A DNA stretch of 64,000 bases from Amoebophrya sp. A120 (lineage: Eukaryota; Protista; Dinoflagellata): the NCBI GenBank assembly GCA_905178155.1, contig CAJINV010000003.1, forward strand, positions 3,963,600 through 4,027,599, in the 5' to 3' direction. A model generated the notes under the pieces. It was not told where the DNA came from and made no database searches. It saw only the letters and a program-made list of their open reading frames with translations. Position numbers and translations under genes: made by a program. The first letter of the stretch is position 1. Every line of letters starts with the position of its first letter. Shown here piece by piece: positions 2,285-59,670 of this stretch.

Positions 2285-3177
2285 ATGATTCCGTCCCCCA
2301 ATGCCGCAGCATCGACTGGTACTACGAGCAGAAACGGGGGCACGTCCACGCCACAGAGTCAAAATACGCCAAATTACAACGGAACACCGGGAACTGGAAC
2401 AATCCCAAGCACGACACCACCACCGACTGTTCTTGCAGGAAGCAAGGATACGCAGTCGTCAAGCAAGGCAGGTGAGCACGACCAGGAAATCAAAATCTCG
2501 AAGGGCGAGAAGCTCCGGCCCGTGAGCTTGCGCCTGATCACGCGGCAACTAATCGAAAATCCGGAGGGGACCGTTGTGCGGATATCCGGACTCGGGCACG
2601 CAATCCAGGAAGCCGCCGTCATTTTCAACCTCCTGTTCGACTTATCGCAAGAAAAAACTGTTTCATTGTGAACTTGTGATGCAAAGAACGACACACCAAA
2701 GTGTTTGTCTTGCTACACCTGCAACACAATGGATTTCTAAGCGTGTTTTCCCTTGGGAAACGCGCATGGCAAATTTTCTGTGTCATGTGTAACAAACTTG
2801 TGATGCGATTCTTGCAAGAGCATCACAGTGAAACAGTTTTTTCGTGGGATACGACTACGTCAAAGTGCACAAATACGAAACCCGCTGGATCAAGAGCCTC
2901 GGGACCACTTACCGTGCCAAGGCAGAGTTTTTTCCCCAGCTCAGGATCCACTTCAGTATTTTTTATTTTTCTCACTTTTTTCTTCTTGGTCTATAGCTAT
3001 ACTCACAGTTCGGTGGATCCATGCCTGTACTTTTCCAAGCTCGTTCCCATTGTTCCAAGAAGAAATGAAATTATGCGTGTTCCTTTAATATATAATGGAT
3101 TGTAAGCCAATGGGCATGGCTCTGACTGGCGCGACGCTATTGTAGCATTTTCATTCACGTCGACCTCGACGTCTTGA
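2285..3177 (+). CDS. Putative Alba-like nucleic-acid-binding protein (3 exons)
   Basis: VVRISGLGHAIQEAAVIF resembles the Alba GxAIxxA motif. Frame continues (LFD-YVKVHKYETRWIKS) after removing element 2643-2851 plus one TSD; probable second intron ~2914-3106, then NGHGSDWRDAIVAFSFTSTSTS*. Confidence 0.45.
2643..2851. mobile_element. Introner element, TIR family E (209 bp), TSD CGACT
   Basis: Ends TATCGCAAGAAAAAACTGTTTCATTGTGA ... TCACAGTGAAACAGTTTTTTCGTGGGATA; CGACT at 2638-2642 and 2852-2856. Confidence 0.9.
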
Positions 3178-3364
3178 TTGTACTTCCTTAAATCATAACC
3201 ATTTTCATTCGGTTCCGCTTTCATCGTACCGATTCGTAGCGCCTTCGACTTGTCTTGAGTAGGCACCAGTTTCCCGACAGAAAATGGGCTCATCTTGCTG
3301 TTCAACCTATCCTGTTTGCTGTACGACTTCAGGTCGTGCTGCCGGATTTCGCATGCGGATTCCA

Positions 3365-5367
3365 ATGGCGCTGAAACCGGAGAAGGTCGCGTTTCTGGCG
3401 AAGCCGACCAGCTTCACGCCGATCTACGAAAAAGAGATACCTGACGAAGTGCACGTGGGGTCCGTCAATGCAGGGAGTGACCAGCTCTTCGTATTATAGA
3501 CCTGGGAGTGTTTTTCTTTTTGTCTTTGTTCATCTGTGATGTTTTTTTATGGTTCTTCACGTGTTCACCGTCACCGAGCTGTACACGACGTCGTGAAGAT
3601 GTCTGATGCACAATATTTTACCATTGCCACAGGTAGGCGGATCCGCAATCAACGCAGCGTTTAAGAGAGCCTTGGATGAGGCCGGCATCGAGACTGGCAA
3701 GTATCAGGACCTACAGCGAAATATCAAATGCAAATATGTCTGGGTCTGGAAGAATGCAGATTTTTGCCATGCTGTTTTTGCATGACACAGAAGGTCTGTC
3801 ATGGAAGCCCTAGCATCACAGATTTCGAGAACGTTCCGCAATGCTTAATCCGCATGACAAATCCCTCTGTTTGGTAACAGAAAATGGAAACCTTTTGCTG
3901 CCTATGCATCAGAGATTTGCGCGTGTTGTGGAATTCGCATCACAAGTTCGGATCCTTCCAGACCCAGACATTTTTGCATTCGACGCGAAAGCTGTGGAAG
4001 TCCGCTTCAGAGCAGCTGGATATCACAGGAAAAAAGTGTTGCAGTTACACATTTGTTGGAGTTTCTGCATTACAAAGCCGCTCGACATGGCAAAGAAAAC
4101 CTGTGATGCGCAGACTATAAGGGAAAACACGAATGAAATGAGGCTGGCAAGCATTTCCTGCAATACAGAGGTCGTCTGTCTTGCTTGTCTTGCATCAAAG
4201 TGTGTAACTGTAACACTTTTTTCTCAGGATACTGGACCGGGTCGTCCTAGCCGACGCCGAGACCTGCAAGGAACTCAAAGTAAACTATCTCTCTTGCAGG
4301 GCAAGCTACGCGGACTCCACCACATGCTCCTGCTTCTTGCACGTCTTCGAGCCGGCAGCGCGACCCATGGGAAACGCGAAGAATGCTGCCATGGTCTATG
4401 TCGTAGGACCGCGAGGTAAGTATAAGTAAGTTGTACTTCTGGCCCTGCTTCTGTGCATTTCCATTTGTCTTCACAAGCGGGAGCTGCTACATGTACCGTC
4501 TTTCGTATGTCAATGCTGTTTCACCTCCCCTGGTGTCGTGGTGAAAACACTGACTGTACGTTGCAAGATGATGTAGAGAACAAGTACAGAACTCATTCCA
4601 CCAAGAACGACCTGTATCCAGGTTCGGAGTGTGGATCGGGCGAAGATTTTCTGGAGAAGCTGCGCAACTGCGGCAAGAATGTAGTCGTGTCCGTGAACCA
4701 GTACAACCTGAAGCATGCCAAGAAGTACACGGAAGAGCTTCCGCGCATCGACCGGGTGCGGGTGTGTCTGGTGAGCGGCGGTATCTACAAGCACCCGGAC
4801 GTGGACAAAAACGACATTGCGCGTGCCCTGATGGAGGGGCTCTACTTGAATCCGAGTGCGCAGGTGGAGCATTCCCCGGTGTTTGAGTTCGCGTACGACG
4901 AAGACGCATTCAAGCTGGCATACGAAAAAGCGCTCTGGATTCCGATCAACGAGCAAAAAACCGTGAGCACCAAAGACCACGACTTGCGGCTGGTGCATCA
5001 AGAACGAGTCGAGGAAGGGCAAGGTGGAGAGGGAACAAGTGGGGAGGTGGTCCAGGACGAGGGCAGCAAGGACGGATCTTCGTCCCCGGGTGGTGGGGCG
5101 CGGGAAAGCAAGAAACCCCGCCTGATAACGAGGGAGCTGAGGGAGGTGGTTGTATCTGCAGGCAGCAACGCGACAGCCACAACGCCGGAAGGAACTAGTA
5201 CCGTCGGAGGAGGTGCTGGACAAGCCTCGGCAACGTCCCCCGTAAGCGACGACAATAAACCGGAAGACGAAGCAGATGAACAAAAAGACGGCGATCGATT
5301 CGTCTCCGCTGGATCAGTAAATCCAGACGAGGTGGTGGCCGGAGAGAATACGGGCAATGCCGTCTGA
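3365..5367 (+). CDS. Macro-domain-like protein, interrupted by two GT-AG introns (3491-3632, ~4416-4621) and two introners
   Basis: Spliced motifs VNAGSDQLF-VGGSAINAAF, MVYVVGPRG and VCLVSGGIYKHP resemble the macro-domain NAxN/GGG, H-x-V-G-P and S-x-G-I-Y motifs; acidic low-complexity tail. Confidence 0.7.
3722..3985. mobile_element. Introner element, main TIR, internal family A (264 bp), TSD CGAAA
   Basis: TATCAAATGCAAATATGTCTGGGTCTGGAAG ... CTTCCAGACCCAGACATTTTTGCATTCGACG; removal gives DLQR-KLWKSASEQ. Confidence 0.9.
4021..4231. mobile_element. Introner element, TIR family E (211 bp), opposite orientation to 2643-2851, TSD CTGGA
   Basis: TATCACAGGAAAAAAGTGTTGCAGTTACACA ... TGTGTAACTGTAACACTTTTTTCTCAGGATA; CTGGA at 4016-4020 and 4232-4236; removal gives EQLD-RVVLAD. 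Confidence 0.9.
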
Positions 5368-17046: not shown

Positions 17047-18292
17047 TTGCCAGCCATGCTGCCTGTGGACCCGTTGCGAGGTTCGGCCCTGCGAGGAAAT
17101 CCCGGTGGTTTTCGGGAGCCCAGTGCGAATGTGACTGGATACGCTGCCATTGTTGGATACGTCTTTGCGCTGCTCAGCTTCGTATCAATTGATCTATTTG
17201 TGCTAGAACTGTACATGCAAGTGAATGTGTATCTATACGTTTGGTTTGTCTACTCTTGAGTTGGTGATTTTTGCCTTCGCAAAACGTGTGAGCGAACTTG
17301 TCCGCTTTTCGATGTGTTGCAACTTCTGAGAGAGACTTTTCTCTCCCTCTCATCAATTATTTTTTCCCTGATAAAAAACCGAACAAACAGCTCGGGCTGA
17401 TCTTGTGGCTGGTGCTGGTTTGGATCTCCTGGGGCAACAAGTCGGCGACGAAAACAACACTGTTTTCCATCCCGCTGCTGCAGAACATTGTGGCTTGCTG
17501 TCGGTGCATATGACAGTGCACGACAAGAACTCCCCCTCCCCCTCATTTGTATAGCACGAACGGCAATACAAGCATCAGCAAGAGTGCTGGTTTTGCATGA
17601 CGAATTTGCACTGGAGTGTAATGCTATTTGGGCTACGAGAACTTGTCACGCAAATAGTGCCAAGAGGCAAAGGGTGGATTGGGTATTTTGCATGACGAAT
17701 TTTTAGGGGGAGCGGGAGTTGTGCACTTTCATAGTGCAGGAGCCTTTTCAGCCGGGTCTTGGGCGAAGAAGAGGAAGGTCAGTCTTCTTCTGATCCAGAC
17801 GACAGCGACGAGTCGTGTCCCGAGTCCGCTAACGAAGAAGAATCCCGTGCGATGAACGGCGCAAACTCGCGGCTAGACAAGTCAGGCGGCGCGCTGAGCA
17901 GTACAGTGACAACCCTCGTAGCAGATGGTACAACATCGATGGCACAGGAGTCGTCGGGGAAGCCACTACAACTTCCAATGATATCGAGTAAAACTTCCTC
18001 AAAAAACAAGAAGAAGACCAGCAGATGGACGCGCGTAACCGAACTTCATCAAGCAAGGGAAAAGAATTTCGCCGCCGAGGAGAGCGTGGGGGTCGCGGTG
18101 CGGAAGCCAAAACGGAGTTCGAAGCAAGCGACTGGCGGTGTGGAACAAGATGGCAGTGGCCGTGCCGATGGGGACCACGAACTACACGACCCTAGCACGG
18201 CCAGGAAGGGCTCGAAGAACACGGGTGCCTCGAGCAAATACAAGCCGTTCAAGCTGCGGTCGTACATGGAAGCATCGCCATTTGGTCCATGA
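17047..18292 (+). CDS. Hypothetical membrane protein (two hydrophobic segments, charged tail); 5' end uncertain
   Basis: YAAIVGYVFALLSFVSIDLFVLELYMQ, GT-AG intron 17221-17390, LGLILWLVLVWISW, introner 17509-17733, then RSLFSRVLGEEEE in frame with ORF 17759-18292. Confidence 0.55.
17509..17733. mobile_element. Introner element, distinct TIR family G (225 bp), TSD GTGCA
   Basis: TATGACAGTGCACGAC...CTCCCCCTCCCCCT at the left, AGGGGGAGCGGGAGTTGTGCACTTTCATA at the right; GTGCA at 17504-17508 and 17734-17738; frame restored on removal. Confidence 0.85.
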
Positions 18293-18984: not shown

Positions 18985-20626
18985 ATGCTTGCCTCACTCC
19001 AGGGTTACGCGGACGCGGTGCGGGGCAAGTTTAGATCGCAGAAGGAGGTGTTGCAGAAGAGCTTCACGGAGAACTCGCTTTGGGGAAACAAAAACAGCAA
19101 CAGCCGTAATTTCACCACCGCAGCGCCGTCGTACCCAATCACAGCGGAGTGCTTCGTCGGACCACGCGGCAAGGTGTGCGGTGGCGGGGAAGAGCAGGCA
19201 GATACCTGCGTGGGCAAGGTGACCTTCGTACAACCGAGCGAAGACATCTGCAACATAGCATGGGACCTGACGGGATGCGGGAAGGAGGGAGAGCACGGCT
19301 TCCACATTCACGAAAAGGCCGACTTTTCCAACGGCTGCGACTCGGCCGGGCCGCATTACAATCCCTTCGGTAATACACGAAGAAATATACAGAGTTGGAG
19401 TAGCAACAAGTTGTAACAGCACTCTATTGGACTGGTGTACGGTCATAGAAATAGTCATGTAGCAGGTGCTGATGTTGCGCGTTGCTCCCTGTAGGTGCAC
19501 AGATGTGACTGGCCACATGATCCGCCCCTGCTAGAGCTATAAAACTGTTGACCATTTTGGCAATTTGTTAGCTTTGCAAAGTGTTGAATTTTCTGTACCA
19601 GGCAAAACGCATGGCGGTCCGCAGGACGAAGAGCGACACGTTGGGGACATGGGGAACATCATCGTCGACAAAAGTGGCAGTTCGACGGGGACTCTCTCGG
19701 ACCATTTAATCAAGCTAACGGGGGAATACAGGTATGAATTGCTGCGTCGCTAAGCGGCCCTGAACTTTTTTTCGCTGCAAAATGACACTCGGATTACATG
19801 GAGCAATAGGAACGCGGTGCGTCATTTCAAACCTCTGCTTCATAACCTTAACCGCAGCGTCATCGGCCGGTCCGATATTGAAGGGAAAACAGCCGCTCGT
19901 TAACAGGTTGGCATGCTACTTTCTTATTACATATATAAATATAACCACACCTTGCGAGCCTCCTCGTGGTCTGCTTCATTGTTCTGTGATGTTCTGCTCC
20001 TCAGTTAAAAGCGGAACATAAGTGCGATCATGATCCAATATACCATTCTGCGCGTGCGGCTCACCGAAGAGGAGTTCAGCCTTGCGGCATTCACTCATTG
20101 CGGCATTCACAGTCCATGAACCTGGAGCGTGCAGCTGCGTTCTTCGTTTGCATACTCGTTATGGTGCACGCGGATCCGGACGATCTCGGTCGTGGCGACA
20201 ATAGCGAAACAGGCGTCAACGATATCCAATGGAGTTTCTTTCGTCAGAAATACTGCGCAGAACTAATGCATGCGCGAGGGTGTACTTGTAGTTGAAGAGA
20301 CATGCAGTTGGGTTTGATGTTTGACGGGTGCAAATAGGACGCAGCTCGCTGTAGCTGCTTCCGTCGAAGAGCTTTTTGATCACCAGACAGACAGGAGACA
20401 CTGCTGCATGAAGAAATATCCTGCAGTGTTCAAAGTCGGTCTTCGGATTCGGAACATCTTTTTTGAAGCGCATAGGCAAATTGTGATTGCTTGGCAGAAG
20501 TAAGCAACAGAAACATAAATCAGACTGGCACGGCCGGGATTTCCTGATGAAGGAAGTTTTCTTTTGGATAATCGGCAAGACGTCGAAAACAACCGGAAAT
20601 GCGGGGGCGCGCATAGCGTGTGGTGA
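18985..20626 (+). CDS. SOD1: Cu/Zn superoxide dismutase, multi-exon, with N-terminal extension; last codons unresolved
   Basis: [67 protein letters not shown]: the canonical metal-ligand motifs across exons. Confidence 0.92.
20223..20570. mobile_element. Eroded introner-type non-canonical intron in SOD
   Basis: Ends TATCCAA...TTGGATA; imperfect flanks AACGA/ATCGG; removal of element plus 5 bp joins GVN-GKTSKTTGNAG; no GT-AG at the boundaries. Confidence 0.65.
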
Positions 20627-21502
20627 AAGTATGCAGTCGCAACGATCGGCGGTCGCAAATCAAGCGGGGCCGATTCCAAATTGAAATTCTTGCATGATTT
20701 GAGAAACTTGCTTCCACTTACGAAGTAACGCGTCGGCGTGGCTGGTAAAAAGAGAGCATTTGTTTTGATATTTTTGCCGCGCAAACAAAGGGGGCCACGG
20801 AGTTCAAAATCCGGGCTTGATTTTCGTTTTTGGGCTTCATAAAGATCGTTCTCGCCTGACCCCGGGCACGGCATCGAATGTATCTTCGGTACGGGCGGAC
20901 CAGACGCTAAAACGTCTTCGTTGGAGAAGGAGAGAGCGTAGCACGACAGGTATTAGTATGAATAGGAATAGCAGGAACTATGCTGGCAACAGCACCACAT
21001 TCAAACGTCCTAAACAGGTCGTAAGCACACAAAGAATAACAAGGATCTGTCCAATAGCAATATTCGTCGCGACATGTCGTGATCGACCACTGAAGACGCA
21101 GATACAAAACTGTCGCATCGTTCTTGCTCGAAACCCAAAAGGCAAACGTGAAGGACGTGCCATACACCGAAAATGCAGCCGCAATCGAACAAAGACTCGA
21201 TACTGCGACACAGTCATGATGCAGTTTCTCTTTTGCCCTTTGTAATCGCATGTTCATTTTTGCTTGATCTCCGTTCTTACTTCGCCTGTTTTACTGGCCG
21301 CGTTCACTTTTTCAGCCACTTCGTACCTTGTGGACCTCCTTTCACCGTTACTTTTGTTCGATCCGATCCCATCCATCGTGGATATCTGATCAGTAGATCT
21401 TTCACACCAGAACTTGATTTTATATGGAGGTAGGCGGCCAGTAGACAGTGATAGGGAAGTTGTGTGTGCTGCTTTACCGGTGCTAGGACTGAGTCAGTGG
21501 TC

Positions 21503-24500
21503 ATGCGGGTTGTCCTTTCGTCTGCCGTGGCCATGGCTGGCCTGGCCGCCGCGTCCGAGAAGAGCAGACCAGTGTCCAAGGTGATCAAGCTTCTGAAGGA
21601 CATGCAGGCGCAACTGGAGGCAGAAGGCGAGGAGGTACCTTGTCTTCTAAATTTAGGCTACACGAAGATCTCCGCGCCATTTAGTTTGACACGTCAGCCT
21701 TTTCTAAATACGCGAAATTTCTGTTGATGTTGAATTTGCGACTACTCATATGGGTAGGCATAGCTTGAGCTTGAAGCACCGCTCCCAAAATTCCCTTTTC
21801 AGGATGAGAGCACCTTTAAGAAGATGGGTTGCTGGTGCGACACAACAAAAGCAGAGACTGCCGAGGCAATCGAAACCGACAAGTATCAACTGTAAAAATG
21901 TCTGGGTCTGGAAGATTCTGAGACCTGTCATGCATGTTTTGCCTTGGCCATGATGTCTGTGATGCATGCCCTAGCATCACAGATTTTTTGAGGGCTTCGC
22001 GATGCCTATTCCGCATGACAAATGCCCTCTCCGCGTAGCAAAAATTGCATTCCCTTTGCTGCTCATGCAATACAGATTTTTCTGGAATCCAAATTCAGCA
22101 TCACAAGTTCCAACTTTCCAGACCCAGACATTTTTACATTTGATAACAAGAAGTGCATTGCAAAAGCCACGGCCGACATTGAGCAGGCCACCGGGGCCAA
22201 AGCCGCGGCAAAGACGGCAAAAGCTGAGCTCGAGGAGCGCATCGCCAAGGACACACAGGATTTGGAAACAGCAACAGAGATGCGAGCAAAAGAGCTCGCG
22301 GCCTTCACGGAAGAGACCAAGGAGATGGTCCAGGCTATCGGGGCTCTGAAGAGCGCTATCACGGTGCTGAAGAAGCACCAGAGCTTTCTGCAGACCGACT
22401 CGAAATTCAAGTCCGTGCGGGACACCCTGATGAGCAACATGGAGCTGTTCGACCGCCGACATCTCGGCGAGATCTCCGGGCAGCAGAAGCGCGCTCTGTC
22501 TAAATTTCTCCAGCAACCCAGCTTCTCCGCTTACAGGTATATCTTCTACCGAAGAAAGTTGATATTGCCGCTGTGATTTTTGAAGGTATGATTTTCAATT
22601 CGTGTATCTTAGTGAAGCTAAATTGCAATCTCGCGTTTGTCGAAAATACCGAAACATCGAAAAACAGCTCGCAGTCGGGCGAGATCTTTGGAATTCTCGA
22701 GAACATGCTGGACACCTTCAATGCTGATCTCAAGACCGCCGAGGAAGAGGAGGCCGCGGCGGTGCAGCAGTTCACCGAACTGAAGAAACTGAAGGAAGAG
22801 CAGATTGCCCGCGACACCGAGCAGCTGGGCAAGGAAAACGAAAAGTTCGCGGCTGCCACCACCAAGCTGGCGGACTCGGAGGCCACTAAAGCGGACTGCG
22901 AGGACTCTTTGGAAAAGGACACGCAGCTCCTTTACGGAATGAGAAGCGGCGGAGGAAAGTTCGTTAGTAGAGTTAAGATTGAACGTGGGTCGGCTGGAGG
23001 CGATGTAGTACTTAGCTATCGAAATACTGTTGCGTTCAGCGTTGCTTCGCAGGCACAGCGCTAGACGACAGCGCCATCGTTTAGTTCAGTTTTGCATTAA
23101 TAATGATGACGTGGATTTCCTGTCGCGCTTCTCTCCTTCCATACTTTCGCCGAAGCCACTGAGACCTGCACGCAGAATGAGCAGGAGTACTCGGAGCGCT
23201 CGAAGTCCCGCGCTGAGGAGCTTGCCGCTGTCGGTAAGGCCCTGGAATTCTTGAACAGCGACGAAGCCCATGAGCTCTTTGGCAAGGCCCTCGGCTTTTT
23301 GCAGGTTGCCTCGGACTCTGCCGACAAGGCGCGCGATGTGCTGCGCAGGGCTGGCCAGCAGTACGGAAACCCGGAGATCCTCAGCTTGGCACAGAAGGTA
23401 ATAAATAAGGATGTTTTTTAAAATTAAATCCACCTGACATCAGCACCTCTACTTATGTGCACATGCACTCTTACATCATGAAGCTGCACTTGCAAAATTT
23501 TTTTATCTCTCCTGCCCCACCGGGTGACTACATCAATGTTTGTCTTTACCTCAGGTGAAGTCCGATGCTTTCGCGCCGGTCATCCACGCCATTGACGACC
23601 TGGTGAAGGACATTAAGGCACAGATGGCCGATGACGTCAAGCAGCGGGACACCTGCACCAAGGAGATCAACGAGCGCACCAAGGTCGTTACCAAGCTCGA
23701 CAACGAAATCACCAACCTCAGCGCGGAGATGGAGCGTCTGGAGGCCGCCATTGCCACGCTGAAGGAGAACATCGAGCAGACCGCGGCGGAGATCAAGGAG
23801 GCCGAGGAGCAGCTGTCCAAGGCCTCCGCGCTGCGCCAGCAGGCCAACGTGGACTTCCAGGTCGCGCTGAAGGATGAAAAGGACAGCATTGCCGTGCTGA
23901 AGAAGGCCGAACAGGTGCTGGCCAAGGTGTACGCCCCGAAGCTGCTGCAGCAGAGCCCGACCTTCAAGACCTACGAGAAGTCCTCCGGCGGCAACAAGGT
24001 CTTGTCCATGATCGCCACTATCATCGCAGATACTGAAAAGTTATCAACTGCAAAAATGTCTGGGTCTGGAAGATCTGAGACCTGTCATGCAAGTTTTGCA
24101 TGAGCCATGATGTCTGTGATGCATGCCCTAGGATCAGAGATTTTTTGAGGGCTTCTTGATGCCTATTCCGCATGACAAGTGCCCTCTTCCCGTATCAAAA
24201 ATCACATTTCCTTTGCCGCTCATGCAATACAGATTTTTTTGGAATCCAAACGCAGCATCACAAGTTGCAATCTTCCAGACCCAGACATTTTTGCATTTGA
24301 TAAAAGTCCGCGGAACTCCGCATCGCCGAGGAAAAGGCGTCGCAGAAAGAGTATTTTACAAAAACTACGCCCCGTTTTACTTTTCGCGATTTTCCTCTTG
24401 ATGGGGAACGACATGTTAACCATGACATGTTTTGGGTGAATTCAATGCAACGAGTCAAAAAATGCTGAAATTCGAATTTCTCTCAGGTACGAAAAGTTCG

Positions 24501-25029
24501 TGAAGAACTCCAACGACAGTATCAAGGACAAGAAGGCGCTGAAGGCCCAGCTCACGGAAGAGAAGGCCAGCAGTGAGGAGAAGCTGCAAGAGACGACGGA
24601 CAAGAAGAAATTCACGACCGACAGCCACACGGCCGAGACCGCGGCGCTGGACCAGTGGAAGTCCGACTGCAAGTTATCAAATGCAAAAATGCCTGGGTCT
24701 GGAAACTTTTGATGCAACTCCGTGAAAAGTAAGTGGAGTGCTCTGCAATTGGCCGCCTCGCATGACAACTTTTTTCGTGCTTGTGTGATGCGTATTTCGC
24801 ATGCGAAGCTGCGCTTTTGCACGGCAGGCAGGAGGACCTCTTGGCGGCCACGCAATACAGAGTGCAGAGTCATGCCAGACTGGCGTGACAATCTTCCAGA
24901 CCCAGACATATTTGCACTTGATACAAGTTCTTGTTCGACAACTTCGAAATCCGCCAAGAGCACATGTCCGGCGAGATTGAGGCTCTGGGCGAGGCAAAGG
25001 CTTTCTTAAAGGGGATGAAGCTGGACTAA
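21503..25029 (+). CDS. Secreted coiled-coil protein of a dinoflagellate-type uncharacterised family
   Basis: Signal-peptide-like N-terminus, RPVSKVIKLLKDM...KMGCWC, long heptad regions, ends EIEALGEAKAFLKGMKLD*. Continuous frame after removing four GT-AG introns and four TIR-type introns. Confidence 0.8.
21884..22145. mobile_element. Introner element, main TIR, family B (262 bp), TSD ACAAG
   Basis: ~30-bp TIRs; ACAAG on both sides; removal gives AIETDK-KCIAKA. Confidence 0.93.
22933..23143. mobile_element. Eroded introner-type non-canonical intron (211 bp)
   Basis: TACGGAATGAGAAGCGGCGGAGGAAA ... TTTCCTGTCGCGCTTCTCTCCTTCCATA imperfect inverted repeat; removal plus 5 bp gives DTQLL-AEATETC. 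Confidence 0.65.
24042..24302. mobile_element. Introner element, main TIR, family B (261 bp), TSD AAAGT
   Basis: TIRs present; close copy of 21884-22145; removal gives TEK-SAELRIAEE. Confidence 0.93.
24675..24923. mobile_element. Introner element, main TIR, family D (249 bp), TSD CAAGT
   Basis: TIRs present; removal gives SDCK-FLFDNFEIRQ. Confidence 0.93.
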
Positions 25030-27996: not shown

Positions 27997-28117
27997 AATA
28001 TTTGTATATATCATAATTTGGATATATCATATCACTTCCTTCATTTTTCTCCATTTCTTTGAGATAATAATTTTCAAGAAAGGCGTTTCCTTTCAGGTCT
28101 GTAATAATAATTTTCAA

Positions 28118-36120: not shown

Positions 36121-37771
36121 TATATGCACTCCAAAAGGATCGCACTACTCGTAGTAATTGCAATCATGCACGACAAGCCCGACTGTCTACCTGAACTAAC
36201 ATGACAAGTTGCCCTTGCTTTTCTTTGTTCTCGAGAAAATGAAAACTCGCGATGCAATGGATACTAGTGCGATACTTTGTTTTGCAATGCATAGTGTAAC
36301 GATAGCAACCATTTGCGCGAGAAGCATACCACTTTTCGCTTTGCGACTTTCCGAGACCGTCTTTTTTCTGCTGAATGCCGGTGCGGTATCGGAGCGGCGA
36401 AAGATGGAGCGCCATGTTATCCACATGCAATTTAATCCCGCACATGTAAAAAATTCATCACACTTCTCGCCACCTTAGAGCATGCCGCTTGTGACGCTTT
36501 TTGTCATGTAGAAAGTGCATTTTTAGTTGTACGTGTACGGAAAATTTACTGTGGATACATGTCGCGGGCCGTGAGTTTTTCGATCAGCTGCGCGCTCTCC
36601 TCGTACTCTGTCAGCTTCGTTTTGTAGAAGTACACGTTCTTTATCTGCGGCACCTCAACATGGTTCGACTTCGACGCCGCTCCGGCACTCGAGACCGAGA
36701 GGGCCGCCACACGCGAAAAAAGAACGCCTAAGACAATCGGAACTTCGAACGCGACGACGAACATAGTGCGGGCAACCAGCCCTGGAGACCAGCGGCTTGG
36801 AGTGTAGTTCTTTATAATCATCTTTGTAAACAGAATGATATATGCGATCTCTGCAGCAATAAATAAACTGATAGCCTTAGCCTGTCAGGTTGGAAATAAC
36901 AAATCTGGTTTCGTGAAGTCTAGTTGTAGTCGTGTGCGGTTTGTCGCTCTTGCTGCCGTAGCTGGCTGTAGTGGTGGTAAGTTCCTCTACTTGCTGCAGT
37001 TTCTACGGGTAAAAACCCAGCAGGACCTCCTTGGATAAAAATAATGCTGGCTACGGAGGACGAAATAAGAAGGATGAGGATCTTCATCTTTGTAGTTGTA
37101 CTACCTCTAAGCGTCAGAAAATAAAGATGCGCGCTAAGGTTAAGAATGACAAATATTAGAACGTTGCTCCTTGGCCGCGCCGTCACGATTAATTTTTGGG
37201 AAAGTTGTCAGGTTTTGTTGAGAGTTCGAGTTTACTTGTTGCACAAAATAATAAAGTACAGTAGCAGTAGGTATGATAGAAGCTTCTGCACTGTTCAAAC
37301 TGTATAGACATTTTGTTCGTGGATTCTAATAAGTAGGACGATTCATCACCGACATTTTGCGTGCAAGCGCCACCATCGCCATCAAGACGGACCGAGCTGC
37401 AGCAATACAAATTCATTTTTATATACATGAATCCGAATAGTACATAAAGCGAGCCTCGAAGAGACTACTTACATTTGAGGATCATGGCTAGATGAAGATT
37501 ATTTGCCTTCGGCTGAGATTTTTTGATTTTGGGTGATCCTTGTTCTGTTTCATTTCATCGGCGTCACAAGAGCAAGTTTCTCATTTTTTACCGACACTGG
37601 CAACCGCGATGCACTTGAAAGATCGCAATGCGTTGCGTTCCATGAAGATACAAGACTGTTCAACAGGAATTCCTGCGTACTACTAGTAGTTGTAGCTCAT
37701 CGTCGTCAGTGCTCGTCTTAGTAAGTTATGATGATTCTTATTAATTTGTTGGTATATATGTTTTTGGGTGT

Positions 37772-42853: not shown

Positions 42854-45800
42854 TCAACAAGTGGGTCCCCGCGCACGCTGCAATTCTCCACCATGGATAT
42901 GACTGCCTCGAATATACTCGAGCGGAGCACCTGCGAAAAGACGGATAGGAGAGTCAAAACATAAGCAACCAAAAAACCTACAGCATAGCAGACAGACGTA
43001 ACGTGGACAAACAAACCGCGTAGTCAAGCCGTACAAGCCAACAAGTACCTCCGAGGAAATGTGGTAAATGCAGTGCACAAATATGCGCATGGTTTTCCGG
43101 CACAACGTTACGGGTTGCAGTTGTGCCGATGTCAACCCTCCCTCTGGACATGTTGCCGCGGACGATGAAGATGGCGAAGCGGCGTTGTCGCTCCAGTTCT
43201 CCTTGTGGGTGAAGTTGCAGGCACGCTTTGCAAGCAGTTCCACGAGGTCGCTGCAATTACTTCCCTTGGGCTTCTGCGCTTCGACAACAGCAATTGCTTT
43301 TTCTAGCGTTTCGGAGAGGAAGTTTAAGTCTTCTCCCTGCGGATTGGTCGTATGGCGGAGCGTTGCCAGAACACTTTGCTTCAAGTCCTGTATGGTACTC
43401 GCGGCTTGCTTGTTAAGACGGGTGTGAGCAGGACTCCGCGCACCTCCTGCACCAGTACCAGAGGACTGCCACGGCTGTTGCTGTTCGATCATGACAGCCT
43501 CGCGCTCCTGGAGCATCAGATCTGCTGAATCCGCGTTGCGTGAAACTTCCACTTTGTTCGTACCGGAGCTGCCATCTTCTCTCGCTGTCTTGGAACCTCC
43601 AGTCGTCGCTGCTACAACAGATCTCTTCGACACTGAGTCTTGATGCGATTGCGAAGTCACAACGACGGCGCGATCATCAGATTTTTCTTCTGTCTTGCTT
43701 CTGCTGTTCCCTTTGCGGGGTATGCGCGGTTCCTGCCCGAGCTCGGGGTTCGCAGTTGTCCCGAGAGACACCGTATCAAATGTAAAAGTGTCTGGGTCTG
43801 GAAACTTGTGATGCTGGGTGGCGTATCATGATGAGGCCACAAGTGCTGGCCCATCATGACAAGTTTCCGAGCTTCTAGGTGTTGCCTATTCTGCATGACA
43901 AACTGCGTTTCTGCATGACAGAAAAGTGGAGCGCTTGGGCAACGTGCGTGACAGATTCAAGAGTCATGCCAGACAAGCATGACAAACATGCATTCTTCCA
44001 GACCCAGACACTTTTGCAATCCATACACCGTGCGAGTCGTCGGGACTCGCGGTTTTCGATGCGGCAGGGCCGCGTCGGCGGCGCGCACAGCGGGTCCACG
44101 GGGACTAGTCTGTGTGGTGGTGGCAGCTCTATTTTTCTGTGCGATCTGCTTCGGCGGCTGGGGCTGAGCCGGTACGGTGCCCGCCGAGATTGGCACTCGC
44201 ACTCTCGCTTTCGGTTTAGTCTTTGCTCCTCTGTTGCGATTGCAAGTAGTCTCGCCCGTAGCGGACGCACGGTTAGAAGTACTACCGACTTGCTTAGTGA
44301 CTTCGCTTTTGGATCGCTTCATCAAGACGCCTTGATTACTCACCCGCTGTGCGGCGACGTCATTCTGAAACGCTTTTCGTGAGCGCGCTGTCAGGGCCGC
44401 GATTTTCTCCGGCGGAAGGTCCAGGGAGTCTAGTTGAAGGCTGTCGAGGAACTGCTCTACACGCGGATCGTCTCCAACCGTCTGTGTCCCATCCTTCCCA
44501 CTCACGCCATTTGGATCTGCGTGGTCGACGGCAAGAACTACACCGAGACCCGCGGCGACCTGCGGAGCCTGTACTGGCTTCGCGCGCAATGCTCCTGTCT
44601 CCTCCTGTGCGCCGCTAGAAGTAGAATTCGTGTGCTCTGGATACAGCATCGTCGTCACAACAGACCCGCGCGAGGGTGCTTGATTGGTCGAGATGGGCGA
44701 GACGTGGTTCTTCGTATTGAAACGCGACGAAGAGGAGGCTGCGGGTTGCTGGTGCGCAACTTGTTTAACACTTGCAGGTTTCATCTCAGCCACGACCACT
44801 TTGGTTTGCGGTTGCGGTTTTCCAGTGCGGTGTGCTACGAAAGGATCATGCGGGTTCGATGTAGCGGACGGTGACTCACCGTGGTTTTTGTCTACAGGTT
44901 TCATCTTGTCGGCGGGCCGGCCCTTGGGACGAGTCGTTGTACCAGCACTGGCACTGGACGCCGTGGTCGAGGTGGTGGTGAGAAGGATAGTACCCGAAGC
45001 GGCAGGAGCGCCGGCACCGGTGTCTCCCGACGAACCCTTTGAAGATGCCCCACTGGCAGCAGCGGAAAAGACAGCCGAGGCACTCATCGGAGCCTGGATT
45101 TTCAGCGTTGAAAACGGAGCACGCAGGGGTCGCGGCGATAACGTTGTCCAAGGATGGTTGGAACTGGCATTTTTACTGGTGTGCTGGAAGAGACGCGAGG
45201 AGCCACTACTGGAAGTAGAAACCTCCTTTGTGCAAGCGCGCGCAGTACTACTACCCGCACCGTGCAAAGCTGCCTTGGAAAGCACTGACGTGCCTCTCGT
45301 GCTGTTTGTACGGATGGCATCTTGCAGGTCCTTTAAGCTCGCTCGTCTTTGCAGGGTTGCTACCGTGCGATCGAAAGAACGCTTCAGAGGAGGAGAGGCA
45401 AACCGCAGGAGCGGAAACTCACTTTTTCGTGCGAGGCTGCTCTTGCTGCCGCCATGACTGCAGGTCGTTGGGCTCTGTGGCCTGCGGTAGTGTTGCGATT
45501 CTTGCTTTCGATCGCGTCCAGCACCATCAAGCGGGCCGTTTGCATTCTTACTTTGTCGACAGGACGAGTCTGCAGCTTCAGCATCACCAATTTCGGAAGT
45601 TTTTCCACTGGACGCCGGAACAAGTTCAACATGTTCATCTTGTTGGCGCAGCAAAGACGTACTACTTTGACCAGTCGCGTCACGTGAGTAAGCATTAGAC
45701 CACGCGTTCGTCGTGTTAATCGTCCTCTGCGCTGCGGCTGCTTCTGTTTGTGGCCATGCGAACTGCGGCGGAATGTGCACGGCTGGTGAGGCGGCGATCT

Positions 45801-51146: not shown

Positions 51147-52611
51147 TTAGAGTCTAGACACCGTTGGCTCCGCGTACAGTTGACGCAAAAAAGCCATGTT
51201 ATTCGCTGCGGACTGCAGTGGATTAGATTTTGCCTCGCCGAGGAGATCTTGTTCCACAACGATCCAGCCCTTGAAAGCGTTATCCACCTGCCATTTCTTG
51301 ACGCCTTCGAAATCGACCATGCCTCGACCGAGTTCCGGGAAGCAACCGTTGTTCACGAGCTCGAAGTAGTCTTTTCCTTTGGCATTACCGTCGTAATCCT
51401 TGAAGTGAAAGCTGTGGATCTGGTGTGTTTTAGTTTTTGTGTGCGACTTCTACTTCTACTGGTACGTCGCTGCAGATCTTCGAGTCTATGTATACGACCG
51501 CGCAAGCTAGTCGTCTAGAAAAAAAAATGTGTAGTAATATCATGCGTTTAGACTTTTCAAATTCAACAAAGAACCTACCTCAAATGCATGAAGATATTAC
51601 CTTGTCTGGGTGTCTTTTGAGAAACTCCACGCAGGCCAGCGGGTTCCCAGCCCCCATGGTTACGTGCGCCGTGTCGTAAATGAGTTTCAGCCCCGGCACG
51701 TCTCGCACGAGGGCCTCGATTTCCCACGGCGTCTCGATGAAGCTACCACAGTGCGGGTGAAAGTGCACTTTGATGCCGTATTCGGACTCAATCATGTTCT
51801 TCAGGATCTGCACCTCTTCCGTCAGGACCGACCAATACTTTGCGCTCAGAGACATTTTCTTCGTAATGCGGCTGGTATTCTTTATCCGGTCGGGGTCTGA
51901 TACGTTGTCGGCCAATACCTTTTTTGATTTTCGGTATTAATTGGCATAGGCATTCGATCAAACGTATAATTTTTTGTATCACTTTGTATCACTTGTCGTT
52001 TACGTTTTCTTCACCCGATGCGTTTTGGAAAAAACGAAAAAGAATAGCATAAGCAAGTGTTAGTTGTTTTAACACACAAGTAGAAGTACGATGTGCGGCG
52101 GAAACTTCTGGTTCGCGAACGGCTGCAGTTGCGCAGCAATCTTGCGAGCATACGCGCGACCCTCCTCGTGCTTGGTTTTATCCCACAGAGCATAGGTGCA
52201 GAAAGCTCCTATCATTTGCAGGTCCTTCGACCTAGTATAAGGCGAAAGTGTATGTAGAAGTTTCCCCGCTAGCTCTACCATGCCACACGGGTTCTTGCAA
52301 TCATGTCCTACATCAAATTGGTAGCGTGGTGAGACTTTTTAAACATGCACCGAACATCAATTTCTGTGGCGCGTTTCTAAAAACTATTTGTGGAAGATTC
52401 TTTGCATATGCATTTTGAGATCTCGTCTATACCGCATCAGGTCCTTCAGCTGTTTCTCACAAGTCGGGAAAAACCCGTAGTCGCCGAGCTCCGTGCCGGT
52501 GTAGCCTGCGAGCTTCAGTTCGTCGAGCATCTGCTCCGGCTTCATGCTACTTTCGATTCCGAATTCGTTGATGCCCCAGCTAATGGGCGCGTTCGCAAAC
52601 TGCACCTCCAT
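51147..52611 (-). CDS. IolE-like (myo-inosose-2 dehydratase / xylose-isomerase-like TIM barrel) protein, paralog 1; three GT-AG introns
   Basis: ANAPISWG, GYTGTELG, FHPHCGSFIET, YDTAH, FHFKD, FPELGRGMVDF, GWIVVEQD motifs; ends AEPTVSRL*. Confidence 0.85.
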
Positions 52612-54750: not shown

Positions 54751-55001
54751 TATCAAATGTAAAAATGTCTGGGTCTGGAAGAGTCATGCTGTTTCTGCAT
54801 GACACAGAAGGTCTGGCATGGAAGCTCTAGCATCACAGGTTTCGAGAAGCTTCCGCAATGCCGAATCCGCATGACAAGTCCCCCATTTTGGTGACAGAAA
54901 GTGAGCAGCCTTTGCTGCCTATGCATCAGAGATTTTTGTGTGTTCTGAAATGCGCATCACAAGTTACATCCTTCCAGACCCAGACATTTTTACATTTGAT
55001 A
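54751..55001. mobile_element. Introner family A (251 bp), TSD ACCTC
   Basis: Perfect TIRs; empty site visible at ~58196-58210. Confidence 0.93.
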
Positions 55002-55055
55002 ACCTCGTCCTTGTAGAGTCGTTTCATGAACGACATGTTGTTTGCTGCGGACTGC

Positions 55056-55319
55056 TATCAAATGTAAAAATGTCTGGGTCTGGAAGAATGCACGTTTGTC
55101 ATGCTTGTCTGGCATGACTCTTAAATCTGTCATGCACGTTGCCCAAGAGCCCGAGCCGCAGGTTTCTGTCATGCGGAGACGCAGTTTGTCATGCAGAATA
55201 GGCAACACCTACTCCTACAAGCTCAGAAATTTGTCATGCTGAGCCAGCAGTCGTGGCCTCCTCGTGCTACGCCACTCAGCATCACAAGTTTCCAGACCCA
55301 GACATTTTTGCAATGCATA
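55056..55319. mobile_element. Introner family C (264 bp), flanks ACTGC/ACTGG
   Basis: TIRs; reverse-complement relative of 43774-44025. Confidence 0.92.
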
Positions 55320-55379
55320 ACTGGCTTTTTCACAGCCTCGAAACAAATTGCGTGGGCGAAACCTCGTCCTTGTAGAGTC

Positions 55380-55630
55380 TATCAAATGTAAAAATGTCTG
55401 GGTCTGGAAGGATCCGAACTTGTGATGCGCATTTTCGAACACAGAAAAATCTCTCATGCATAGGTAGCAAAAGCTGCTCAATTCTGTCACCAAAATGGGG
55501 GATTTCTCATGCGGGTTCGGCATTGCGGAGGCTTCTCGAAACCTGTGATGCTAGAGCTTCCATGCCAGACCTTCTGTGTCATGCAAAAACAGCATGAATC
55601 TTCCAGACCCAGACATTTTTACATTTGATA
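55380..55630. mobile_element. Introner family A, inverted (251 bp), TSD GAGTC
   Basis: Perfect TIRs; reverse-complement relative of 54751-55001. Confidence 0.93.
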
Positions 55631-55712
55631 GAGTCGATTCATGAACGACATGTTGTTTGCTGCGGACTGCAGTGGATTAGTTTTTGCCTCGCCGAGAAGA
55701 TCCTGCTCCACA

Positions 55713-56109
55713 TATCAAAAAGAAAAATCCCCCCTCCCCATATCGAAAACGAAATTTGTGATGCAGTATTTGAGGCGTGAGGCGAAACTGGTACCGCTAA
55801 GAGGAAGTGGAACAATCAGCAGCCCGAACAGATGCAGTATTTGAGTACACAGATCGCATTTGTCTTGCTGGAGAGGACTGCAGACCCATATCAAGCCTGA
55901 GTACTAGAGAGGCTTTGACTTAGGCGCTTAGCATGAAAAGCGTCCGCGATGTTGGCTCAACAGCATGACAAACCGGCTCCATAATGGGACGGAAGCTGCT
56001 GCCCTTGTCTTCTTGCAGCACAAACGTGATTTGTGACCTCAAATCAGCAACGCAAATTTTCGAAAACCTACCTCTTCAATATGGGGAGGGGGGATTTTTC
56101 CTTGCGATA
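55713..56109. mobile_element. Introner TIR family F (397 bp), TSD CCACA
   Basis: TATCAAAAAGAAAAATCCCCCCTCCCCATAT ... ATATGGGGAGGGGGGATTTTTCCTTGCGATA; empty site at ~58556-58570. Confidence 0.92.
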
Positions 56110-56136
56110 CCACAACGATCCAGCCCTTGAAGTCGT

Positions 56137-56389
56137 TATCAAATGCAAAAGTGTCTGGGTCTGGAAGATTCCGGGATTTGTCATGCTAGTCCAGCATGAC
56201 TCTGAGCTCTGTATTGCGTGGCCGCAAAGGGCTTCTCTTGCCTGTCATGCAAAAACGCAGTTTCTCATGCGGAGTTCGCAACACTGAACCACGGAAAACC
56301 TTGTCATGCTTGGCAGTGCATTACAGTATGCGCATTTTTCCCTGACTTGCATCACAAGTTTCCAGACCCAGACACTTTTACATTTGATA
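56137..56389. mobile_element. Introner family D (253 bp), TSD GTCGT
   Basis: TIRs; reverse-complement relative of 24675-24923. Confidence 0.92.
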
Positions 56390-56481
56390 GTCGTTGTCAC
56401 AGCCTCGAAACAAATTGCGCGGGCGAAACCTCGTCCTTGTAGAGTCGCTTCATGAACGACATGTTGTTTGCTGCGGACTGC

Positions 56482-56733
56482 TATCAAATGCAAAAATGTC
56501 TGGGTCTGGAAGAATGCACGTTTGTCATGCTTGTCTGGCATGACTCTTAAATCTGTCATGCACGTTGCCCAAGAGCCCCAGGCTTCTGTCATGCGGAGAC
56601 GCAGTTTGTCATGCAGAATAGGCAACACCTACAAGCTCAGAAATTTGTCATGCTGAGCCAGCAGTCGTGGCCTCCTCGTGCTACGCCACTCAGCATCACA
56701 AGTTTCCAGACCCAGACATTTTTGCAATGCATA
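56482..56733. mobile_element. Introner family C (252 bp)
   Basis: Copy of 55056-55319 lacking two 6-bp insertions. Confidence 0.92.
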
Positions 56734-56793
56734 ACTGGCTTTTTCACAGCCTCGAAACAAATTGCGTGGGCGAAACCTCGTCCTTGTAGAGTC

Positions 56794-57044
56794 TATCAAA
56801 TGTAAAAATGTCTGGGTCTGGAAGGATCCGAACTTGTGATGCGCATTTTCGAACACAGAAAAATCTCTCATGCATAGGTAGCAAAAGCTGCTCAATTCTG
56901 TCACCAAAATGGGGGATTTCTCATGCGGGTTCGGCATTGCGGAGGCTTCTCGAAACCTGTGATGCTAGAGCTTCCATGCCAGACCTTCTGTGTCATGCAA
57001 AAACAGCATGAATCTTCCAGACCCAGACATTTTTACATTTGATA
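56794..57044. mobile_element. Introner family A, inverted; duplicate of 55380-55630
   Basis: TIRs, TSD GAGTC. Confidence 0.92.
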
Positions 57045-57126
57045 GAGTCGCTTCATGAACGACATGTTGTTTGCTGCGGACTGCAGTGGATTAGTTTTTG
57101 CCTCGCCGAGAAGATCCTGCTCCACA

Positions 57127-57523
57127 TATCAAAAAGAAAAATCCCCCCTCCCCATATCGAAAACGAAATTTGTGATGCAGTATTTGAGGCGTGAGGCGAA
57201 ACTGGTACCGCTAAGAGGAAGTGGAACAGTCAGCAGCCCGAACAGATGCAGTATTTGAGTACACAGATCGCATTTGTCTTGCTGGAGAGGACTGCAGACC
57301 CATATCAAGCCTGAGTACTAGAGAGGCTTTGACTTAGGCGCTTAGCATGAAAAGCGTCCGCGATGTTGGCTCAACAGCATGACAAACCGGCTCCATAATG
57401 GGACGGAAGCTGCTGCCCTTGTCTTCTTGCAGCACAAACGTGATTTGTGACCTCAAATCAGCAACGCAAATTTTCGAAAACCTACCTCTTCAATATGGGG
57501 AGGGGGGATTTTTCCTTGCGATA
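57127..57523. mobile_element. Introner family F; duplicate of 55713-56109
   Basis: TIRs, TSD CCACA. Confidence 0.92.
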
Positions 57524-57550
57524 CCACAACGATCCAGCCCTTGAAGTCGT

Positions 57551-57803
57551 TATCAAATGCAAAAGTGTCTGGGTCTGGAAGATTCCGGGATTTGTCATGC
57601 TAGTCCAGCATGACTCTGAGCTCTGTATTGCGTGGCCGCAAAGGGCTTCTCTTGCCTGTCATGCAAAAACGCAGTTTCTCATGCGGAGTTCGCAACACTG
57701 AACCACGGAAAACCTTGTCATGCTTGGCAGTGCATTACAGTATGCGCATTTTTCCCTGACTTGCATCACAAGTTTCCAGACCCAGACACTTTTACATTTG
57801 ATA
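57551..57803. mobile_element. Introner family D; duplicate of 56137-56389
   Basis: TIRs, TSD GTCGT. Confidence 0.92.
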
Positions 57804-57895
57804 GTCGTTGTCACAGCCTCGAAACAAATTGCGCGGGCGAAACCTCGTCCTTGTAGAGTCGCTTCATGAACGACATGTTGTTTGCTGCGGACTGC

Positions 57896-58159
57896 TATCA
57901 AATGTAAAAATGTCTGGGTCTGGAAGAATGCACGTTTGTCATGCTTGTCTGGCATGACTCTTAAATCTGTCATGCACGTTGCCCAAGAGCCCGAGCCGCA
58001 GGTTTCTGTCATGCGGAGACGCAGTTTGTCATGCAGAATAGGCAACACCTACTCCTACAAGCTCAGAAATTTGTCATGCTGAGCCAGCAGTCGTGGCCTC
58101 CTCGTGCTACGCCACTCAGCATCACAAGTTTCCAGACCCAGACATTTTTGCAATGCATA
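57896..58159. mobile_element. Introner family C (264 bp), just past the stop codon of IolE paralog 2
   Basis: TIRs; matches 55056-55319 including both 6-bp insertions. Confidence 0.92.
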
Positions 58160-58169
58160 ACTGGCTTTT

Positions 58170-59670
58170 TCACAGCCTCGAAACAAATTGCGTGGGCGGA
58201 ACCTCGTCCTTGTAGAGTCGTTTCATGAACGACATTACCAACAGTAAAAATGTCTGGGTCTGGAAAAATCCAACTTGTCATGCTGATTTTGGATTCTAAA
58301 AAAATCTGTATTGCATGAGCAGCAAAAAGAATCCAAGTTTTGCTACACGGACAGAGCATTTGTCATGCGGTAGAGGCATCAGGAATCCCTCACAAAATCT
58401 GTGATGCTAGGGCATGCATCACAGACATCAGGAGTCATGCAAAATGTGCATGACAAACCTGGCAATCTTCCAGACCCAGACATTTTTGCATTTGATAGAC
58501 ATGTTGTTCGCTGCGGACTGCAGTGGGTTCGATTTCGCGTCGCCGAGAAGATCCTGTTCCACAACGATCCAGCCCTTGAAGTCGTTGTCGCGTTGCCACT
58601 TCTTGACACCTTCGAAATCGACCATGCCTCGACCGAGTTCCGGGAAGCAGCCGTTGTTCACAAGCTCAAAGTAGTCTTTGCCGGTTGCATTCCCGTCGTA
58701 ATCCTTGAAGTGGAAGCTGTGGATCTGTTGTGTTTATTTTGTGAGCGAAGTAATACTTCGCTGCAGATCTTAAAATCCATACGACTGGCGCGCAAGCTAG
58801 TCGTCTAGAAGAAAAAAAATGTGCATCATGCACGTAGACTTTTCAAACTCAAAGGACCTGAAATCCATCAAAAATATACCTTGTCTGGATGTCTTTTGAG
58901 AAACTCCACACAGGCCAGCGGGTTTCCAGCCCCCATGGTTACGTGTGCCGTGTCGTAGATGAGCTTCAGCCCCGGCACGTCTCGCACCAGCGCCTCGATT
59001 TCCCACGGCGTCTCGATGAAACTGCCACAGTGGGGGTGAAAGTGCACCTTGATGCCGTATTCGGACTCAATCATGTTTTTCAGGTAGGCGACCTCCTGCA
59101 CGAGCGTTTCCCAGTACGGCTTGGAGAGCGACATCTTCTTCGTGATCCGGCTTGTGTGCCTTATTCTGGTCGGGTCACTAACGTTGTCCGCGAGCACAAT
59201 GTGCGGCGGGTACTTTTGCTTGGCGAACGGCTGCAGCTGTGCCGCGATCTTGCGAGCGTAGGCGCGACCTTCCTCGTGCTTGGAGGTGTCCCACAACGCA
59301 TACGTGCAAAACGCCCCGATCATGTCCAACCCACGTACCCTGCATTTTTTCGAATGCGAAAACAAAACGATTGAACTCGAAGTAAATGGTGAAGTGGAAG
59401 ATCTTCTGCATTCTTATGCGCATTTTCAAGTATGGATGCAAGAATATTTCAAATTTCTAAATTCATGCCGCGTACATCAAATTCATACCTTAGCATCTCG
59501 TCGAGCTGCCCCGGCTGCGTTGGAAAGAAACCGTAGTCGCCGAGCTCGGTGCCGGTGTAGCCTGCCAACTTCAGCTCATCCAGCATTTGTTCGGGCTTCA
59601 TGCCGCTCTCGATGCCAAACTCATTTATGCCCCAGCTGATGGGCGCATTCGCGAAGTGCAACTCCATCAT
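58170..59670 (-). CDS. IolE-like TIM-barrel protein, paralog 2; two GT-AG introns and one introner
   Basis: Highly similar to paralog 1; removing 58236-58497 plus TSD gives NNMS-FMKRLYKDEVPPTQFVSRL*, matching paralog 1 NNMAFLRQLYAEPTVSRL*. Confidence 0.85.
58236..58497. mobile_element. Introner family B (262 bp), TSD GACAT
   Basis: TIRs (left end TACCAACAGTAAAAATGTCTGGG); empty site in paralog 1 and in the array fragments. Confidence 0.93.

Follow-up and report, generated by a model that had tools for sequence, protein, structure and literature searches.

How a mobile element can settle inside a coding exon and leave its gene readable is the question raised by a stretch of the genome of the dinoflagellate Amoebophrya sp. 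A120 (contig CAJINV010000003.1, positions 3,963,600 to 4,027,599 of the forward strand). The window, meaning this whole stretch of 64,000 nucleotides, contains short elements with terminal inverted repeats (TIRs) and 5-bp target site duplications (TSDs) that interrupt the exons of apparently intact genes. An earlier note, made from the sequence alone, had proposed a non-standard excision acting on RNA or DNA. It was asked at which level the elements are removed, where the cut lies and which agent makes it. The element class is real and already published; what is new is a rule for the position of the cut, drawn from a small sample.

Joints in RNA and continuity in DNA

Contigs of public sequencing runs were compared with positions 1-18900 and 17000-36900 of the window. 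Runs X3-X6 are RNA according to the tool's guess, and in 17000-36900, where one RNA run was compared, the counts are those among the joints listed. RNA joints cover seven of the 23 young elements; four others lie in a helicase-like gene almost without RNA cover and 12 lie outside the compared stretches. All seven listed joints skip exactly the element length plus 5 nt, so that exactly one TSD is retained, as the earlier note had foreseen. Skips of 214, 269, 216 and 230 nt were present in all four RNA runs, and those of 267, 266 and 254 nt in the single RNA run at a depth of 1604. The same RNA contigs also skip 14 GT-AG introns. Precise removal of Amoebophrya-type introner elements in the absence of GT-AG, as previously suggested, is in agreement with these joints and with the A120 introners described in the searched text of Farhat et al. 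2021 (PMC7789003).

In the DNA run X1, introns and spacers were evenly covered at a depth of 23-30. The contigs extended 25-60 bases from the flank into the elements and ran unbroken through four old introns, described below. Element-free DNA molecules, the other outcome allowed for by the earlier note, were not found: no joint of the RNA type was present in the X1 contigs at three young and four old sites, a comparison that rare or stage-specific forms would escape. Common excision at the DNA level is not supported, and the data lean strongly towards removal at the RNA level rather than the DNA level.

A further claim, that no frame-preserving GT-AG pair exists at the element boundaries, needed correction at element 17509, which has an in-frame pair within 8 nt (+6); the RNA joint does not use it. 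In four of the seven young elements, use of a GT-AG pair would lengthen the excision by one base, and the listed joint is not at that pair. Minor use of such nearby pairs could be hidden by decay of the out-of-frame products together with contig simplification.

Restoration of the reading frame by removal of the element and one TSD had been reported for seven genes; frame restoration was confirmed and six genes were counted. The frame is open once the element and 5 nt are removed in the genes at 2288-5367, 17037-18292 and 21503-25029, the last encoding a coiled-coil protein. A query with the coiled-coil exon returned eight proteins, among them an A120 paralog (61%); the best named one is from Amoebophrya sp. 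A25 (88%). The A25 protein is continuous across all element positions, with junction peptides as predicted by removal of element plus 5 nt, including that of element 21884. In the gene at 43-47 kb the same removal gives 1271 codons, versus 1058 (+4) and 1064 (+6). The TIM-barrel paralog 1 served well as the internal control for which it had been put forward, as the C-terminus of paralog 2 matches it after removal of element plus 5 nt; the IolE label of these paralogs, which match Pfam PF01261, is putative. On the minus strand, a helicase-like frame (31366-36884) reaches 1537 codons after four removals and has weak AAA and UvrD-like matches.

Position of the cut relative to the element ends

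At the young elements the perfect repeat lets the cut slide, and its exact position cannot be placed. Four old non-GT-AG introns with decayed TSDs, which the earlier note did not include, were informative. Three are in a Cu/Zn superoxide dismutase (SOD) gene and one is in the coiled-coil gene, and all came from the RNA joints with no selection by motif. Every one has TAT or TAC near its start and ATA near its end, leaving five bases unpaired in all. Across them the mRNA takes its first three or four TSD bases from the left copy and the remainder from the right one; in 4/4 introns the cuts fall 1-2 nt ahead of TAT and 4-3 nt past ATA. Given as bases before and after the element, the allowed registers are 3/2, 2/3 and 1/4 in two of these introns and 2/3 and 1/4 in the other two, the common ones being 2/3 and 1/4. 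None of the 14 canonical introns fits any register (old introns 4/4 versus 0/14, p = 3e-4). Since decayed repeats are still removed, the repeat seems dispensable for removal, and the cut would be set relative to the element ends.

The RNA joints inside genes numbered 25, of which 14 were GT-AG and 11 non-GT-AG. The arrangement TA(T/C)...ATA with a 5-nt overhang was found in 10 of the 11 non-canonical introns versus none of the 14 canonical ones (Fisher p = 3e-6), and no non-canonical junction (0/11) could be placed at GT-AG or GC-AG.

Three observations favour 1/4 over 2/3. In the 1/4 register all 11 non-canonical introns begin with N-TA(T/C), a match to the canonical donors, which have GTA in 13 of 14 cases and GTA(T/C) in nine of 14. 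In Table S4 of Farhat et al. (PMC7789003, seen in part), T stands at +2 in all nine predominant A120 non-canonical motifs, which have a variable end; these motifs represent about one fifth of the introns, and their positions were placed by an aligner. Finally, a putative GT-AG intron of TIM-barrel paralog 1 reads G-TAT...ATA-CTAG. On these sequence comparisons the register is likely to be 1/4, with an intron of the form N-TAT...ATA-NNNN.

According to the legend in Farhat et al. (PMC7789003, searched text), the cut site relative to the hairpin is variable and unknown. A fixed register would replace this variable boundary by an exact prediction open to testing on existing genome and RNA data; it would also correct gene models and account for low-cost entry into any exon. 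The earlier note had called the removal mechanism unresolved, and indeed neither a register nor an enzyme for Amoebophrya is stated in the literature text searched, subscription papers and Farhat figures 3 and S19-S25 aside; the searched parts of two reviews (PMC11453091, PMC13149111) give no register.

An invariant position 4 in both TSD copies was considered and rejected. It was seen in all four old introns (chance about 0.004, uncorrected) and is contradicted by other loci: among 18 imperfect repeats, L098 and L110, with open flank frames, differ, L022 and L119 fit, and the rest are mis-paired, ambiguous or give no information. Scanning for old introns without a motif yielded 2037 candidates and did not help.

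Targets, hairpins and the agent of removal

An exact-pattern scan returned at least 138 loci. The 80 listed, to which the following counts refer, all come from one metagenome assembly, are DNA only and contain 113 complete elements of 240-324 nt. An exact 5-bp repeat flanks 95 of the 113, with repeats of 3, 4 and 6 bp at 2, 2 and 0, and the 95 exact repeats comprise 89 distinct 5-mers. TAT is present at 222 of 226 ends, one end being fixed by the search pattern. Both orientations occur, with no bias (about 21 versus 26 of 47 strand-called elements); the strand caller was correct in 11 of 12 window cases, four rows were re-signed by hand because of one inverted reference. Element length is unbiased modulo 3, and no open stretch longer than 91 codons was found in the elements. 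A second element often lies within 50-200 bp (L002, L003, L006, L008, L011, L022, L046, L069 and L090).

The end duplexes of the elements reach -10 to -28 kcal/mol, versus -2 to -9 for canonical introns. A branch motif YTRAY was found in six of 11 non-canonical and five of 14 canonical introns, and no clear pyrimidine tract was seen even in the latter. The canonical introns in 1-26400 have donors of the type GTA(T/A/C), lacking G at +5, and several of their acceptors are rich in A and show neither a pyrimidine tract nor a clear branch motif. These donors and acceptors would fit a spliceosome for which no U1 small nuclear RNA (snRNA) is reported: in the searched text of PMC7789003, A120 retains U2, U4, U5 and U6 and 83 of 89 proteins, and U1 snRNA was not detected.

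On balance, we consider that the elements are probably cut from the pre-mRNA by the organism's own spliceosome, relaxed and guided by the hairpin. The spliceosome is the most likely agent because A120 retains its snRNAs and proteins and because tunicates show a similar relaxation, in which GT-AG can be dropped (bioRxiv 10.1101/2025.08.15.670264, seen in part). The introns of the tunicate Fritillaria borealis share a transposon origin and the lack of GT-AG, and are removed by a changed U2-type spliceosome (the same preprint and PMC11282704, both in part). Fritillaria retains the preferred ends AG-AC and AG-AT and has a duplicated U2AF, whereas in the present introns the end bases come from the host sequence and are arbitrary. 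Of the earlier proposal, the RNA level is strongly favoured by the contigs, while "non-standard" is weakened, register and donor match favouring a relaxed ordinary spliceosome.

In such a scheme a mobile non-coding element with hairpin ends inserts, duplicates five arbitrary host bases and stays in the DNA, as observed here. In the pre-mRNA its ends would pair together, and the intron would run from the last base of the left TSD through the element to the fourth base of the right TSD. The TA(T/C) of the element would serve as donor positions +2 to +4; end pairing would replace G at +1 and the acceptor AG, the acceptor being counted four bases from the stem. As the ends are symmetric, either orientation would be functional, and spread would rely on a DDE transposase or an integrase provided in trans. 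It is rather probable that N-TAT...ATA-NNNN acts as a hairpin-ruler code, by which any 5-bp target in either orientation yields a precise intron, with no constraint on its first base or its last four and with the paired ends overruling a GT-AG pair one base away. If so, either the spliceosome would function with neither of its near-universal terminal G bases, or an unknown nuclear enzyme would cut and join these introns; in both cases a code like that of Euglena would have had a second, independent origin.

Several points weigh against this reading. Neither excised RNA nor a lariat or branch point was seen. The RNA evidence consists of contigs, which lose rare forms, from one sample label and one study; in 17000-36900 a further 149 weaker joints lie beyond those listed; and two raw-read runs with the same species label (X10 and X11) gave five and two partial reads and no cover of the stretch. 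In the helicase-like gene RNA cover is almost nil, so that the evidence for its four elements is the frame, and a frame of equal length results from offsets that compensate each other. The four old junctions alone cannot separate 1/4 from 2/3, and 1/4 rests on the donor match and an aligner-placed table. End pairing beats shuffled sequences in only one of the four old introns, and no G-U excess was found at terminal mismatches on the sense strand (7 G-U versus 8 A-C). Element 3722 is excised exactly despite its ACG end. No target bias to splice signals was detected among 52 strand-called perfect repeats listed (G at position 5 in 14/52, AG at 3-4 in 4/52). In the 1/4 register the 3' ends are AC, AA, GG, GC, AA, AG, AG, CG, CG, GA and TT, and ends as arbitrary as these are hard for a standard second splicing step.

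The alternative that survives best keeps removal at the RNA level with a fixed offset and assigns it to an endonuclease and ligase that act independently of the spliceosome, or to a second machinery, of the kind suggested for Euglena; it is possible but doubtful. In its favour, the first base and last two bases carry no sequence demand, near-canonical GT-AG pairs are ignored, and a stem of about 30 bp would bury the donor. The Euglena nonconventional introns, as described in the searched text of Nomura et al. 2025 (PMC12501133) and PMC11282704, share paired ends at a fixed offset, direct repeats and a likely origin from miniature inverted-repeat transposable elements (MITEs), and their excised forms are reported as non-lariat circles (PMC11282704). 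Their fixed-offset code N3CDG...CHGN5-6|R, which has been defined genetically (PMC12501133), has 8-9 unpaired bases, as opposed to N-TAT...ATA-N4 with five; the lineages are unrelated, and the euglenid signature is absent from the element ends. Against a separate enzyme, the 1/4 register agrees with the genome's own donor consensus. Moreover, the same repeat layout is present in 15% of A120 canonical introns (PMC7789003, searched text), and tunicate spliceosomes work in the absence of GT-AG (the preprint cited above).

It is unlikely that the cut falls loosely inside the TSD at the RNA level, the four old introns agreeing by small-sample luck or gene-specific history. Only four introns are informative, three of them from one gene, and inverted repeats lie 1-5 nt from annotated sites in the searched text of PMC7789003. 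However, all four introns share 2/3 and 1/4, with identity of the intronic duplication positions at chance (4/16), and the published spread is what would be expected from an aligner sliding in perfect repeats, the motifs of Table S4 being all N-T.

Programmed or transposase-mediated precise excision from DNA, comparable to the eliminated sequences of ciliates, followed by transcription from cleaned templates, is very improbable. The ends are transposon-like, precise excision would leave one duplication, and rare or stage-specific empty sites could escape contigs; against this, the DNA contigs pass unbranched from flank into element and through the old introns at even depth, the old introns are removed although they have no repeat, and the register is asymmetric relative to the transcribed strand. 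Weakest of all is reverse-transcriptase template switching across hairpins in damaged genes, whose classic substrate is a strong hairpin enclosed by 5-nt repeats (according to part of a review): the four old introns, which slide by only 1-2 nt and fold weakly, are removed just as cleanly, the main contig (depth 1604 and 277) is the one with the skip, the frames match the A25 ortholog, at 88% for the queried exon and also at every junction, and the Cu/Zn SOD is completed.

Element families, host genes and other features of the window

The coordinates of the elements and introns are collected in Table 1.

Table 1. Elements and introns of the window, with target site duplications and joints seen in RNA contigs.
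Feature	Coordinates	Strand	TSD	RNA joint	Remarks
Young element	2643..2851	+	CGACT	2637>2852, skip 214 = 209+5, 4/4 runs	Exon of 2288-5367 gene
Young element	3722..3985	+	CGAAA	3715>3985, skip 269 = 264+5, 4/4 runs	
Young element	4021..4231	+	CTGGA	4015>4232, skip 216 = 211+5, 4/4 runs	
Young element	17509..17733	+	GTGCA	17503>17734, skip 230 = 225+5, 4/4 runs	
Old TAT...ATA intron, Cu/Zn SOD gene	19876..20154	+	TCCGA/CTCGT, decayed	19731>20157, 15 microexon letters between	After 15-nt microexon
Old TAT...ATA intron, SOD gene	20223..20570	+	AACGA/ATCGG, decayed	20219>20573	
Old TAT...ATA intron, SOD gene	20630..20841	+	GAAAG/AAGAT, decayed	20627>20845	Yields SOD C-terminus RIACGEIVLA
Young element, coiled-coil gene	21884..22145	+	ACAAG	21878>22146, skip 267 = 262+5	Hairpin z = -7.2
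Old TAC...ATA intron, coiled-coil gene	22933..23143	+	TCCTT/CTTTC, decayed	22930>23147	Ends pair in fold; whole-intron z = -0.15
Young element, coiled-coil gene	24042..24302	+	AAAGT	24035>24302, skip 266 = 261+5	
Young element, coiled-coil gene	24675..24923	+	CAAGT	24669>24924, skip 254 = 249+5	
Element, helicase-like gene	34600..34893	-	AGGCC		Frame only; RNA depth near 0-2
Element, helicase-like gene	34997..35276	-	CGTTT/CGGTG, imperfect		Frame only
Short element, helicase-like gene	36123..36293	-	ATGTA/GTGTA		Frame only
Short element, helicase-like gene	36418..36557	-	CATGT		Frame only
Element, 43-47 kb gene	43774..44025	-	CACCG		Frame
Inferred GT-AG intron, TIM-barrel paralog 1	52232..52432	-			G-TAT...ATA-CTAG, canonical and 1/4 register; boundaries inferred from paralog by eye
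Array of partial last-exon copies, 10 elements, 5 insertions	54751..58159	-	ACCTC, ACTGC/ACTGG, GAGTC, CCACA, GTCGT		
Element, last exon of TIM-barrel paralog 2	58236..58497	-	GACAT		C-terminus like paralog 1 only if element+5 removed

By a generic and a relaxed repeat scan, 23 TAT...ATA elements with 5-bp TSDs were located between 2643 and 58497, close to the 21 or so first estimated. They measure 140-397 nt and represent 18 independent insertions, since 11 of them are inside a tandem array (54751-58497) that accounts for only six. The generic scan presupposed nothing beyond a 5-bp direct repeat and inverted ends; it found 16 distinct elements with at least 16/20 terminal matches, and three dinucleotide shuffles of the window gave 9, 3 and 6 hits, none above 15/20. 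Among the inverted repeats, a 30-bp end predominates, TATCAAATG(T/C)AAAAATGTCTGGGTCTGGAA. The ends deviate in element 3722, with ACG in place of ATA on the right, and in element 58236, with TAC instead of TAT on the left. All ten TSDs that had been named as arbitrary host sequence were located; the repeat is exact at 18 of the 23 elements and imperfect at five.

The A120 introners of Farhat et al. (PMC7789003, searched text) have ends with TAT, followed by seven variable bases and then three or more A, and direct repeats of 3-5 nt, including a 5-bp example. This end motif is present in the main family TATCAAATGTAAAAA and in elements 2643, 4021 and 55713, and the inverted repeats of 8-20 nt or longer that characterise A120 introners were found at both element ends. 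The two sets are alike in end motif, repeats, a mean length of about 240 nt, RNA-supported removal and lack of GT-AG; no difference in kind was seen in that text, the addition here being a cut confined to two adjacent registers. The elements also have the traits of MITEs, namely TIRs, a TSD of fixed length, short size and no coding capacity. The family is repeated genome-wide (alignment A1), with a summed DNA depth of about 100,000 versus 25, which is not a copy number; in the same alignment element 24675 is oriented opposite to the two preceding elements.

The introners of Micromonas and Aureococcus, and MITEs, are likewise non-coding TIR elements with a target duplication that become introns. 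They form GT-AG or GC-AG sites from element plus duplication and need particular targets, whereas here any 5-mer appears to serve (89 of 95 distinct among the elements listed). A120 introner family 38 (Gozashti et al. 2025, PMC12130899, seen in part) shares the organism and the flanking TIRs; as described, it carries Copia/Gypsy-like and integrase-like frames, which the window elements do not. No match to a transposase or integrase was found among the 28 window frames scanned, which gave one weak zinc-finger match (E 0.024). An integrase-like helper would suit a 5-bp duplication.

An internal motif, TGT(C/G)ATGC and its complement, has 75 matches, nearly all within elements of at least three families (for example 21926-22098), and represents possible shared transposase binding sites. 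A 167-nt TAC...GTA inverted repeat at 62549-62715, flanked by CAGCC/AAGCC, was excluded from the element count because it has no evident host frame.

Among the host genes, the SOD gene has a Pfam Sod_Cu match, and removal of its old introns completes a Cu/Zn SOD; its 15-nt microexon (19858-19872) is flanked by a GT-AG intron and a hairpin intron. The helicase-like gene has a raised DNA depth and many variant letters, and is likely a multi-copy or mobile gene.

The array at 54704-58497 consists of partial last-exon copies of the TIM-barrel gene, in which 11 elements fill 3095 of 3747 nt, having inserted at six distinct points over some 200 bp of target. One unit is duplicated at 1160/1162 identity, either by a very recent event or as an assembly repeat. 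At each duplication joint stands one element with the flanks ACTGC/ACTGG from two different sites, the outcome expected of recombination between two elements.

Two related stretches of about 300-350 bp (27640-28000 and 30260-30545), with long terminal A runs and raised DNA depth, resemble the 3' ends of a non-LTR (non-long terminal repeat) retroelement. Between them lie an inverted repeat (28965-29021 / 30201-30257) and the weak zinc-finger match, which is of gag type.

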